Shown here in pieces: positions 7,690 to 14,763 of a stretch of DNA of 32,000 nt. The stretch is taken from contig CP060225.1 of NCBI GenBank assembly GCA_023898485.1, positions 412,824 to 444,823 of the forward strand, given 5' to 3'. The DNA is from Candidatus Peribacteria bacterium. GTDB taxonomy: Bacteria > Patescibacteriota > Gracilibacteria > Absconditabacterales > Absconditicoccaceae. Below the pieces are notes generated by a model. That model did not search any database. It saw nothing but the letters and a program-made list of their open reading frames with translations, and was not told the DNA's origin. The stretch's first letter is position 1; every line of letters starts with the position of its first letter. Position numbers and translations under genes: made by a program.

Positions 7690-7763
7690 CGGGATATAGC
7701 TCAGATGGCTAGAGCGCAAGGCTGGGGGTCTTGAGGCCGCAGGTTCGAGTCCTGTTATCCCGA
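7690..7763 (+). tRNA. tRNA-Pro (anticodon GGG)
   Basis: Hand-folded cloverleaf: acceptor CGGGATA/TATCCCG, D-arm GCTC..GAGC, anticodon stem CAAGG/TCTTG with loop CT-GGG-GG (G37), T-arm GCAGG-TTCGAGT-CCTGT, discriminator A73. No CCA is encoded. Confidence 0.85.
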
Positions 7764-7766
7764 GAT

Positions 7767-7848
7767 GCCGAGGTGATGGAATTGGTAGACATGTACGCTT
7801 CAGGTGCGTATGCCGCAAGGTGTGTGGGTTCGACTCCCATCCTCGGTA
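7767..7848 (+). tRNA. tRNA-Leu (anticodon CAG), type II with long variable arm
   Basis: Acceptor GCCGAGG/CCTCGGT, anticodon stem TACGC/GCGTA with loop TT-CAG-GT, long variable arm TGCCGCAAGGTGT, T-arm GTGGG-TTCGACT-CCCAT, discriminator A73. It starts 3 nt after tRNA-Pro. Confidence 0.85.
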
Positions 7849-11715: not shown

Positions 11716-13266
11716 CTACTCTTGATATTGCTTAGTCGCATATCCCAACCGCGCGCCCATCATCAGCATCCATGGATAGATACTCATGCTCTCCATCATA
11801 CTATGGAGCACCAGTCACACGATACCCAGTCACACTGCTCCAAGTAGCAAATATGTTCCATCACTATTTCGTCCATTTCTTCTCCTTATTCCATTTCGTC
11901 CTACCGCCACCCACAAAGCCACCCACAGCACAAAACCAATAATACCCACTTCCATCAGGATTTGGATATACTGATTTTCGGGATGATACACTATCGTGTT
12001 CTCTCCATCTTCTGCTCTATATGCTCCTGGTCAGACCGAAGCAACTCCGTATCCTGTTCGTGGGGACTGTCAGACTTTTTGTATTCATTCAATAAGCAAT
12101 TCAACATGACCCTTGTCAGACAGATCTCTCATCAACACCCCCTGATCACGATCAGCAGCCTGAGGCACATCCACCGGTCAGGCGACACGGATCAGTCCTA
12201 TCGTAGCTATCATTCATAGTCATACTGCCACAAAAAGTGAAACTACTGAACACCAAACACTACTATAAGAGTTTGTCGTAGCAGGTGTACGACAAGTGTT
12301 TGCAAGATCAACACCCGTAGCAGGTGTCGAGCACGCACCGGCTGCGAGACTTGATTTTTTTGCGTACTTTTTGGATCAAGCCAAAAAGTTCGTCCCAGCG
12401 AAGCGTCTCACTAAGAAATGAACAACAAGAACCAGTAAAAGTTCCACCAAGAAAACTCCCCACGCTGCACGAGAGAAGGTCAGTCCCACATTGACCGTCA
12501 ATAACACTATCCAAAACACCATATGTCACCACTTGCTACCATTGGCTACCATTTGTGACCACCTCCATATATACCATGGCGCAAACGCTATCAAGAAAAA
12601 TCCCCAACTGGTCGGTCCACCAAAGATCGATCCATTGCGGATATAGCCCCATCGAACCTGCGTCAGATAGCGTACAGGCGGCGCAAATCATTCACTCCAC
12701 TGATACGCATCCATACTGTATCCAAGCGATACAAGGAGATCTGGGAGCCAGACGCTCAGTCCTCGTCGCGCAATTCCAACGACAAGTAAGACGCTGATGA
12801 TGGTCTGCATGGTTTTGGCAAGACGCTCGTATCATCACTGTAGGCGAACGACGATATATCCTGTGAGGAGGACTATTCGTGGGATGATATCGTATTTGAT
12901 GAAGACGATCCACTCACGGAGTAACTGGTCATGCACACCGAATGCCAGGATCGCAGAGAGAATCAGTAATGTAAGTAATAATCCAATCATCGTCAGGAGA
13001 AACTTGTCTGCAAACAGTTCCTTCATGCTACTTATTCTATTTATTCCACTTCGTCTCTTTCTTCCAAAGACTACCAACCACAGACTACCAACCAATAATC
13101 CTCCAATAATGAGTTCTTTCCACAGCCACACCATTTCTGGTACATCTATACCAAAACCATACACCAGTATCGTACGTAAGACGAATGGTAAGGTCATACC
13201 TATCAACCATAACTGGAGAATACGAATCATAGAAAAGAAAAGAAGAATAAAAGCAACAAGTAACAA
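11716..13266 (-). CDS. O-antigen ligase/polymerase-like (Wzy_C-type) polytopic membrane protein, paralog B, carrying an in-frame inserted element
   Basis: Many TM segments. ..GLTFSRAAWGVFLVELL.. is the Wzy_C-like SR[GA]A motif, followed by ..RTGYGVASV[G]PGAYR..PENQYIQILMEVGIIGFVLW... It is colinear with paralog A. More than 10 in-frame TGAs. TAG stop at 11716-11718. The start is uncertain (TTG at 13266 or ATG at 13230). The loop at 12247-12408 is about 45 aa longer than in paralog A. Confidence 0.7.
12340..12390. repeat. copy A of a conserved hairpin/pseudoknot module, inside the paralog B CDS
   Basis: GGCTG..GACTTGAT-ttttttgcg-TACTTTTTGG-ATCAAG-CCAAAAAGT. There are 35/42 identities to 19629-19670, and the only stem differences are compensatory (GG:CC versus CT:AG). 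Confidence 0.6.
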
Positions 13267-13280
13267 GTAATAAGTACCTG

Positions 13281-14651
13281 CTACCTCTGTTCTACCTGAT
13301 ACCTGTTACTGACATATGCTACCGTCACTCCGTATGGAATGAAAAAGAGGTAATTGACCATGCTATCGATGAAGACATGGAGTACCAGTCACTCGATCAG
13401 TAGGCCACCGAAACCCAATGACATCAGCAATATTAGCAATGAAAATAGCCCTTCATCACCCTCTATAGCCCTTCATCACCCTCTATAGCCCTTCATCACA
13501 TACCCAAACCATGTCAGGACAAACATACCAATCAATACAAGTCATGGTCGTCACATATTGACCACTCGCTGGATATAAACACTCTCTACCATAGACAGAT
13601 CATGCTGAGGACGAGTTTGGTAATCAGGTGCATAGTGCTGTGCTGGTCACGACATGCCCAATCCATAACCTCGTGGATTGTCTTGGATGACACGTCGAGC
13701 AGTAGATCGAGCACTCTCATGGGTCTGTGTCGATCCGACTTTTCGCTGCTGGATGAGACCGATAAAATATCGTGATACCAGTCATACGAAGATACTAAAC
13801 AGCAGTTTTCTCGCTCGAGAAATATTCCACAGGAGGATGATACCCGCAATCATCTGTACACCAAAGGCGACCACTGCTCCTCTACTAAGCGTCGCAAACA
13901 GCGACACCACAAAAAGTACTGTGAACAAGAACACCTGCCAACGGCGGCGGAAAAAGTTCACCACTGCAGATCTATACGATGCAAATGCTACGAGCAAAAA
14001 TCCTAAGACATTGGGTCATGCAAAGAGTCCTGACAGACGCGGATGTCCGTCTGGTCCCGTGAGATAGTACACCGGTGGAGCCATGTCTGGAGAGAAATCA
14101 CCAAATGGCCCATAGCCTAGATACTGGATGAAGATATCAGGAAAAAAGAATTTGAGCCCCTGCCATAGCCAACCGACAATCAGTAACCAGTAAAGAATAT
14201 GAAATACTGCCTTGTGTAACTGTAACAATGAGGCGGATCCTCCATTATCGTCCATAGTCCTTCACCGTCCTTCCTGTTCCTTCCGCCAAAACCCCAACCA
14301 TGTCGCTGATGTCAGGAGGACGAAGGGATAAATATCGTATTTGAAGCCGATGATAAGCTGATATCGTGTCTCTCATACCCACAGTGAGTGTCCGACTCAC
14401 CACACGACCAAAACCAGAAGAGCGAGAAGTAGTCGTTTTCGTTCATGAGCTCGTCTGATCAGCGCTTTGGGATATGAAAACGCAAGTCGTACCAGTAGAC
14501 CAAACCGCAAAACTTCTCTGCCAAAAATTCGCATTCGTTTGGTTCGAGCGAGATCGAGTCCATACGTCACTCGCGCTTGAAGGACGAAACTCGCCGCAAT
14601 CAATACCAAAAATCCGATAACATAATGTGTCACGCGCTGGAGAGAAGACAT
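13281..14651 (-). CDS. O-antigen ligase/polymerase-like (Wzy_C-type) polytopic membrane protein, paralog A
   Basis: (M)MSSLQRVTHYVIGFLVLIAASF.. ..FKYDIYPFVLL.. ..LFATLSRGAVVAFGVQMIAG.. ..PRGYGLGMS[G]PAQHY..ESVYIQRVVNM[G]RP[G]LVLIGMFV... In-frame TGAs join track ORFs 14397..14654, 14016..14255 and 13782..13997, plus the C-terminal TM region. A TAG lies immediately upstream of the start. TAG stop at 13281-13283. Confidence 0.75.
13445..13499. repeat. perfect 20-bp tandem repeat, 2.75 copies, inside the paralog A CDS
   Basis: ATAGCCCTTCATCACCCTCT x2, then ATAGCCCTTCATCAC (plus strand). On the coding strand it reads VMKGYRG[G][G]RAIEGDEGLF, so successive copies are read in different frames. Confidence 0.95.
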
Positions 14652-14763
14652 CACCTACATCATAGAATAAATATCCGTCAATCGTAATCGCCCCTGTCAT
14701 GGTTGCATCCGTCGGAAGCTTCTCTATGCTTGTGGAGCTTTTAGGTTCGTAGGTAGTGTAGGT

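Follow-up and report, generated by a model that had tools for sequence, protein, structure and literature searches.

Rickettsia palindromic elements (RPE), reportedly described by Ogata et al. in 2000, are said to be folding palindromes of 100-150 bp that lie in frame in protein genes, essential ones included.

Another kind of short repeat, the TAACTGA direct repeat, occurs in marine Beggiatoaceae, in Cyanobacteria and in some Bacteroidetes (MacGregor 2015, PMC4679880). A few tandem copies immediately precede start codons without a Shine-Dalgarno (SD) site; reverse copies are found inside open reading frames (ORFs), where forward copies are limited by stop codons (PMC4679880). In simple sequence repeat (SSR) contingency loci, rates rise with the repeat number (PMC11868660). 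Among the papers retrieved on phase variation and SSRs, none mentioned Patescibacteria.

The repeat analyzed here lies in a window of 32,000 nucleotides (the whole stretch of DNA presented above), which belongs to a 1.0-Mb single-contig genome (G000). A sequence-only reading of this window had proposed that a perfect 20-bp tandem repeat, located inside an O-antigen-ligase-like coding sequence, could act as a slipped-strand on/off switch. The tract, its host gene and a paralog of the latter are located as follows:

13445..13499, plus strand, antisense to Wzy-A: 20-bp repeat tract, 20 bp × 2.75
13281..14654, minus strand: Wzy-A, WaaL/Wzy_C-like polytopic membrane protein, 457 aa (table 25), 11 in-frame TGA
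11716..13266, minus strand: paralog Wzy-B, Wzy_C, 516 aa, 38.7 bits against PF04932

The sole Rfam matches within the window are two adjacent tRNA genes, at 7690-7763 and 7767-7848 on the plus strand.

The perfect tandem repeat was confirmed by TRF, which returned a period of 20, 2.8 copies, 100% matches and no indels at 13445-13499; the score of 110 is the highest within the 32-kb window. The tract consists of ATAGCCCTTCATCACCCTCT repeated 2.75 times without a mismatch, and its 35 matches in a row at lag 20 are beyond chance for 32 kb. An underlying period of 10 was also detected by TRF in the same tract (13459-13492). The 20-mer is made of two 10-bp units, CCTTCATCAC and CCTCTATAGC, and the tract reads as five phased units, CCTTCATCAC CCTCTATAGC CCTTCATCAC CCTCTATAGC CCTTCATCAC, with ATAG at the 5' end. 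In Wzy-A it encodes residues 385-403, VMKGYRGGGRAIEGDEGLF, a Gly/Arg/Glu/Asp-rich linker of 18-19 residues, which matches the translation given earlier. This stretch contains two in-frame TGA (Gly) codons and is readable only when TGA is a sense codon, as had been stated. The accompanying statement that all three frames are open has to be corrected, the register in use being the only open one among the three antisense registers.

The nature of the host protein was examined at the level of both family and fold. When compared with the Pfam family Wzy_C (PF04932), Wzy-A scored 36.5 bits, above the gathering cut-off of 31.7. An AlphaFold model built on 12 homologues had a pTM of 0.80, and its top Foldseek match was WaaL (7TPG, E 4.9e-4, probability 1.00), followed by the SEDS proteins FtsW and RodA. 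The model predicts a WaaL-type polytopic fold for Wzy-A. The likeness to WaaL/Wzy_C (PF04932; PDB 7TPG) consists of the Pfam threshold passed and of this best structural match; the two proteins differ by a low identity (14%, with a TM-score of 0.44-0.48), and Wzy-A may be either a ligase or a polymerase. Across the 12 homologues, R258 and S431 never vary, and H312, H426 and D430 vary little or not at all. The motif LHVFxDSMVNY, to which the last two of these residues and S431 belong, is near-invariant; in it L425 is also invariant, and M432 and Y435 show little or no variation.

In the Wzy-A model, the tract covers the last part of helix 369-392, all of the loop 393-398 and the first residues of helix 399-425. 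WaaL has 12 transmembrane (TM) helices, cytoplasmic N- and C-termini and an outward-facing domain before TM10. By analogy with WaaL, the tract-encoded loop would lie between TM10 and TM11 (the last-but-two and last-but-one helices) on the cytoplasmic side, and the Lys/Arg-rich loops of the homologues agree with this placing. The stretch from E357 to H426 counts 70 residues in Wzy-A and 59-67 in the homologues, a net gain of about 3-11 residues. As this gain is modest, a plain 55-bp insertion is not demonstrated; earlier codons of the loop may have given way to the tract, or the tract may have expanded where it stands.

The best homologues of Wzy-A, searched for in 40 related genomes and in a collection of 5.8 billion proteins, are 36-37% identical to it. 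TRF analysis of 14 orthologous loci detected no repeat in the loop equivalent to the tract loop. Neither the left flank nor a 30-mer of the repeat had an exact match among JGI metagenome contigs, a collection from which records very close to this genome may be missing. A perfect (GAATGAC)x8.9 array was observed 3 nt past the stop codon of a Wzy orthologue from a related genus (L011:2421-2482, G016:C132); the heptamer occurs at just two loci in the genome of that relative.

The corresponding loop of the paralog Wzy-B counts only 59 residues from E to H, against 70 in Wzy-A. The short direct repeat that had been reported in this loop does exist, but it is limited to a 9-mer, ATTTCGTCC, present at 11866 and at 11893. 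The 27-nt spacing of the pair preserves the reading frame, and about five such pairs are expected by chance per 32 kb, according to our estimate. Wzy-B also carries a separate 52-aa insertion (window about 12240-12410, alignment columns 319-370), which is absent in all 11 homologues.

The consequences of a change in copy number were followed by rebuilding Wzy-A in silico with 0.75 to 5.75 repeat copies. Over this whole range, only the present 2.75 copies gave the full-length protein of 457 aa. With 0.75 copies the product was reduced to 393 aa, with 1.75 copies it reached 423 aa and ended in an out-of-frame tail, and with 3.75 copies or more it stopped at 403 aa on an internal TAG. The reason for the last result is found at the edge of the array, which ends exactly between CTAT and TTTC: a complete third copy would give CTA followed by TAG, which truncates all the longer alleles. 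Gain or loss of one 20-bp unit therefore removes the last two helices, as had been predicted, the truncation falling before TM11-TM12 and before the LHVFxDSMVNY motif.

One reading of these properties is that of a slipped-strand contingency locus, at which gain and loss of 20-bp units would reversibly toggle a WaaL-like enzyme and vary the surface glycan under phage or host pressure. The copies are perfect, as slippage requires, the unit is not divisible by three, the host gene is glycan-related, and a change of one unit suffices to cut the protein short of TM11-12 and of the invariant H426/D430/S431 motif. However, the tract holds only 2.75 copies, whereas phase-variation rates scale with the repeat number (PMC11868660). 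It has a single ON length, to which the usual rule of every third unit being ON does not apply, and the loop that it encodes is cytoplasmic by analogy. The frame shift and truncation on which the switch reading was built are supported; the single ON length, the position of the loop and the arrays of essential genes described below weigh against the switch itself.

A census of similar arrays was then established for the 1.0-Mb genome, by scoring phased units of the form CCTYYAT. It revealed about 43 arrays of three to seven head-to-tail 10-bp units, CCTYYATNRN, against none in Markov shuffles. Among the 208 units, CCT and T7 are near-invariant, and the commonest unit is CCTTCATCAC. The best relative of the tract elsewhere in the genome is 94% identical over 33 nt (G000:697220-697252), within an ABA-type array that is nearly identical to the tract (G000:697213-697252). 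Many arrays also show higher-order periods, of 20 or 30 bp, and 15 of the 43, mostly those inside essential genes, contain perfect internal duplications of 10 or 20 bp. Besides the tract, examples are the arrays of LysRS (G000:184493-184532), CysRS (231788-231847) and a MurJ-like gene (469768-469807, 40 bp). The 13445-13499 tract is a member of this family.

Could the tract nevertheless have been born in place from duplicated codons of the loop, its resemblance to the dispersed arrays being a matter of chance? The loop is just 3-11 residues longer than in the homologues, which would suit such an origin. But both 10-bp halves of the repeat fit the family profile and one of them is its commonest unit, an ABA array almost the same as the tract stands at G000:697213-697252, and shuffled genomes are devoid of such arrays. 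We regard a purely local birth as very improbable.

The distribution of the family was examined with a four-unit pattern (at most one mismatch), run on G000 and on 60 other genomes of the same family, from 43 genera. In G000, 23 matches were obtained with this pattern and none with a reversed control; in the 60 other genomes there was no match. From these scans, the array family appears to be lineage-specific, being found in one genus among 61 genomes of its family. As a possible mobilizer of the arrays, a Y1/RAYT transposase was looked for, and none was found in the genome.

A pattern scan was also carried out GTDB-wide, and it returned matches in Saprospiraceae, Verrucomicrobiota, a Patescibacteria MAG and others. 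The long 10-bp arrays are found in the following loci:

L077, L092, L094, L101: Saprospiraceae/Saprospirales MAGs
L057, L059, L098: Verrucomicrobiota MAGs
L116: Patescibacteria MAG

Their units are, for example, CCTTCATAAC, CCTCCATAAT and ACCTTTATTG; a hairpin, CCCCGATGAATATCGGGG, breaks up the arrays of Saprospiraceae, many of which are at contig ends. No homology to these arrays is claimed, since the likeness of the units is imposed by the search pattern and the scan had no control.

Back-to-back divergent pairs of arrays, 1-10 bp apart, were observed five times in the 1.0-Mb genome, three of them between divergent genes and two in frame inside genes (an RluA-type synthase and the CCA-adding enzyme):

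G000:C1:226148-226239, 366590-366699, 349025-349126, 555307-555424 and 579896-579996: divergent array pairs

Such a pair may represent the full element. The same genome contains two reverse-transcriptase (RVT_1) genes, at G000:C1:494439-494999 and at 849787-850482 (plus strand).

Arrays embedded in genes were classified on the basis of ORFs, Pfam and orthologues. At least 12 arrays lie in frame inside long ORFs, and 10 of these 12 are antisense to their host. Pfam confirmed as hosts IleRS, CysRS, LysRS, the CCA-adding enzyme, an RluA-type pseudouridine synthase and a Polysacc_synt (MurJ-like) flippase; a DnaE-like ORF of 1033 aa, identified by eye, is a further one. In every confirmed host but CysRS, the array falls within the matched Pfam region; in CysRS it is situated just beyond the catalytic-domain match. 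In LysRS the array region, with the peptide MMKGDEGGGR, is longer by about 8-9 residues than in most of 10 relatives and by 4 than in the closest one, and in IleRS it is longer than in the relatives by at least 7 residues. On the evidence of these alignments, the arrays of LysRS and IleRS are lineage-specific additions.

Nine of the 12 embedded arrays are carried by IleRS, LysRS, CysRS, the CCA-adding enzyme, RluA and DnaE; the other three belong to glycan-related membrane proteins, two being in Wzy-A and one in the MurJ-like flippase. The idea of a repeat dedicated to surface-glycan genes does not survive this comparison: the family is genome-wide, and copies as perfect as that of Wzy-A are found in LysRS, IleRS, CysRS, the CCA-adding enzyme and DnaE. 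The numbers are small, and they leave room for some bias of the embedded arrays toward glycan-related genes.

This result bears directly on the switch. Since arrays just as perfect are found in essential genes, whose switching off a cell would not survive, perfection is a trait of the family and no evidence of selected switching. Considering also the copy number and the single ON length, we hold a contingency locus at this site to be unlikely, and we infer that adaptive switching is absent at the tract. More probably, slippage here would inactivate Wzy-A, and the tract would be a mutational weak spot, not an evolved contingency switch.

The embedding of the arrays depends on the genetic code. 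One or two in-frame TGA codons are present in 10 of the 12 embedded arrays, which can therefore be read through only under a UGA-recoded code, and nine of the 12 have no open frame at all under the standard code. A tRNA with the anticodon UCA is encoded at G000:C1:851214-851287 (plus strand); it was labelled SeC by ARAGORN and fits the tRNA-Gly(UCA) that is expected for table 25.

Besides this location inside genes, the arrays showed a marked association with gene starts. After 19 of the 43 arrays, an ORF of 100 aa or more begins with its ATG within -12 to +20 nt in the same orientation, compared with a baseline of 12.8% at random genome positions (p=4e-7). From their N-terminal sequences, the genes preceded by an array include GlyRS, RecA, MurA and RsmI. 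Throughout the genome, the sequence ahead of genes is poor in G and rich in T. Furthermore, the 3' end of the 16S rRNA after helix 45 (G000:C1 about 623470-623543, minus strand) reads ...GGAAGGTGGGGATAGACCATTATCCTAACAC, without the canonical anti-Shine-Dalgarno CCTCC. With G-poor upstream regions and a 16S tail devoid of CCUCC, the genes preceded by arrays have no Shine-Dalgarno site. The 16S tail, CCATTATCCT, agrees in sense with certain array units, such as CCTTCATTAT CCT. A single unit was also considered as a general start signal; this was rejected, as the enrichment of CCTYYAT upstream of genes is due only to the arrays.

A single response regulator of the OmpR/PhoB family was found in the genome, at G000:C1:707999-708661 (plus strand; L189:1072-1734). 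It is a protein of 220 aa with REC and Trans_reg_C domains. Proteins of this family bind head-to-tail direct repeats of 10-11 bp. By this analogy, the OmpR-type regulator could speculatively be regarded as a candidate binder of the arrays.

Such an association with gene starts raises the question of whether the Wzy-A array is itself functional as DNA or RNA, as a plus-strand promoter, leader or protein-binding module that would drive or regulate either an antisense transcript against Wzy-A or an ORF of 27 codons beginning 11 nt downstream. The family is strongly tied to start codons in the sense orientation, and an ATG is indeed present 11 nt past the tract, and likewise past the second array of Wzy-A (see below). 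But the ORFs that follow have just 27 and 18 codons, the ATG and its flank are accounted for by the TWFGY/TWLGF codons of the host protein, and the CCTT spacer that usually precedes the ATG is absent. The sole sigma-70-like match nearby (plus strand, 13418-13446, at the left edge of the tract) is weak, with 9 of 12 positions, and such matches are fewer than in shuffles. In addition, the tract strand does not fold better than shuffles (-2.7 kcal/mol, z 0.33), and the search of the tract region in Rfam gave no match. A role of this kind for the Wzy-A copy is, in our opinion, improbable.

A second array is present in Wzy-A itself, and both arrays are followed by related sequences:

14239..14288, plus strand: second, degenerate array, CCTCCATTAT CGTCCATAGT CCTTCACCGT CCTTCCTGTT CCTTCCGCCA
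13500..13515, plus strand: 16-nt flank, ATACCCAAACCATGTC, directly after the 13445-13499 tract

Residues 122-138, the loop WRKEQEGRGRTMDDNGG, are encoded by the second array; at this place Wzy-A is about 10 residues longer than most homologues. The flank of the tract recurs as AAACCCCAACCATGTC at 14289-14304, right after the second array, in the same register and with 14 of 16 positions identical. On their other side, the two arrays also have in common an SLL-encoding stretch, again in the same register. The 16-nt flank was found beside no other array of the genome. As it is shared by the two Wzy-A arrays and by no others, it suggests that the two loops are related by intragenic copying of an array together with its flanks.

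Taken together, the data lead us to consider, with a probability of about 0.65, that the tract is one copy of a dispersed genome-wide array family and a tolerated passenger in Wzy-A, rather than a purpose-built switch. The family consists of genus-specific arrays of short direct repeats that occupy two settings in this genome: some point at a gene from just before its ATG, and others lie in frame, mostly antisense, in protein loops. The tract is embedded antisense in a loop of Wzy-A, where it would simply be translated as a linker, UGA being read as glycine. Its 20-bp perfection would be the usual behavior of the family, resulting from a recent local duplication or from copying of an ABA-type donor such as that at G000:697213, and a perfect periodicity need not mean selection for switching. 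Because no length other than 2.75 copies yields a full-length protein, purifying selection would hold the tract at its present length, slippage producing null alleles.

A broader reading, which is possible but to which we give clearly less credit than to the passenger one, is that the arrays form a real control module. They would then be the sites of one regulator at about 20 gene starts, this regulator being of the OmpR type or an RNA-binding protein acting on SD-less leaders. The reading of UGA as glycine would have opened genes, essential ones included, to arrays as translated linkers, and the Wzy-A copy could in addition be a slippage switch with one ON state. If this were true, the reassignment of a stop codon would have opened coding sequence to repeats that are otherwise full of stops.

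On the preferred reading of the tract as a tolerated passenger, what has the look of a textbook slippage switch, in a bacterium of a candidate phylum, is more likely to be a single member of a repeat family that extends over the genome. A single perfect repeat, when no genome-wide census accompanies it, is thus poor ground for calling phase variation. The array family is worth attention for its own sake: it has one unit per helical turn, appears genus-specific, stands exactly at start codons without a Shine-Dalgarno system, and is translated in frame in essential enzymes, where it is readable only through UGA=Gly. If the interpretation is right, it would link a change of the genetic code to the tolerance of repeats within genes, and would provide about 20 concrete gene starts at which initiation or regulation could be probed in Absconditabacteria.

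How does this locus compare with the systems mentioned at the outset? With the SSR contingency loci of Haemophilus, Neisseria and Campylobacter (PMC11868660), it shares a non-triplet unit in a glycan-related gene and a shift of frame when the number of units changes. It differs from them by its 20-bp unit, its 2.75 copies, its one ON length and the presence of arrays in essential genes as well; both the periodic restoration of the frame over successive lengths and the concentration in non-essential surface genes are absent here.

The likeness to the RPE, which are compared here by description alone, is that of a dispersed repeat in the reduced genome of a host-dependent bacterium, inserted in frame and translated as an extra surface loop. 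The tract differs from these elements as a 55-bp array of direct repeats without a fold, and inverted pairs are found in some members of the family only.

The closest published analogue of the array family is provided by the TAACTGA direct repeats, together with the heptamer arrays (STRR) of cyanobacteria. In these systems as in ours, a genome contains many sets, in each of which one short unit is repeated in tandem a few times. As with TAACTGA, most sets end a few nt ahead of start codons without a Shine-Dalgarno site, the genes that follow share no pattern of function and include essential ones, and reverse copies are tolerated in ORFs, as are the antisense arrays that make up 10 of the 12 embedded ones here. 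The unit, however, is not a heptamer: it has 10 bp, that is, one helical turn, and is degenerate (CCTYYATNRN). Further differences separate the family from the TAACTGA repeats. It often has higher-order periods, of 20 or 30 bp, the embedded copies are in mid-domain positions of essential enzymes and not mainly at protein ends, and their embedding depends on UGA=Gly in a family confined to one genus among the 61 genomes. Judged from unit sequence and distribution, the array family works like the TAACTGA/STRR type, yet does not belong to it.
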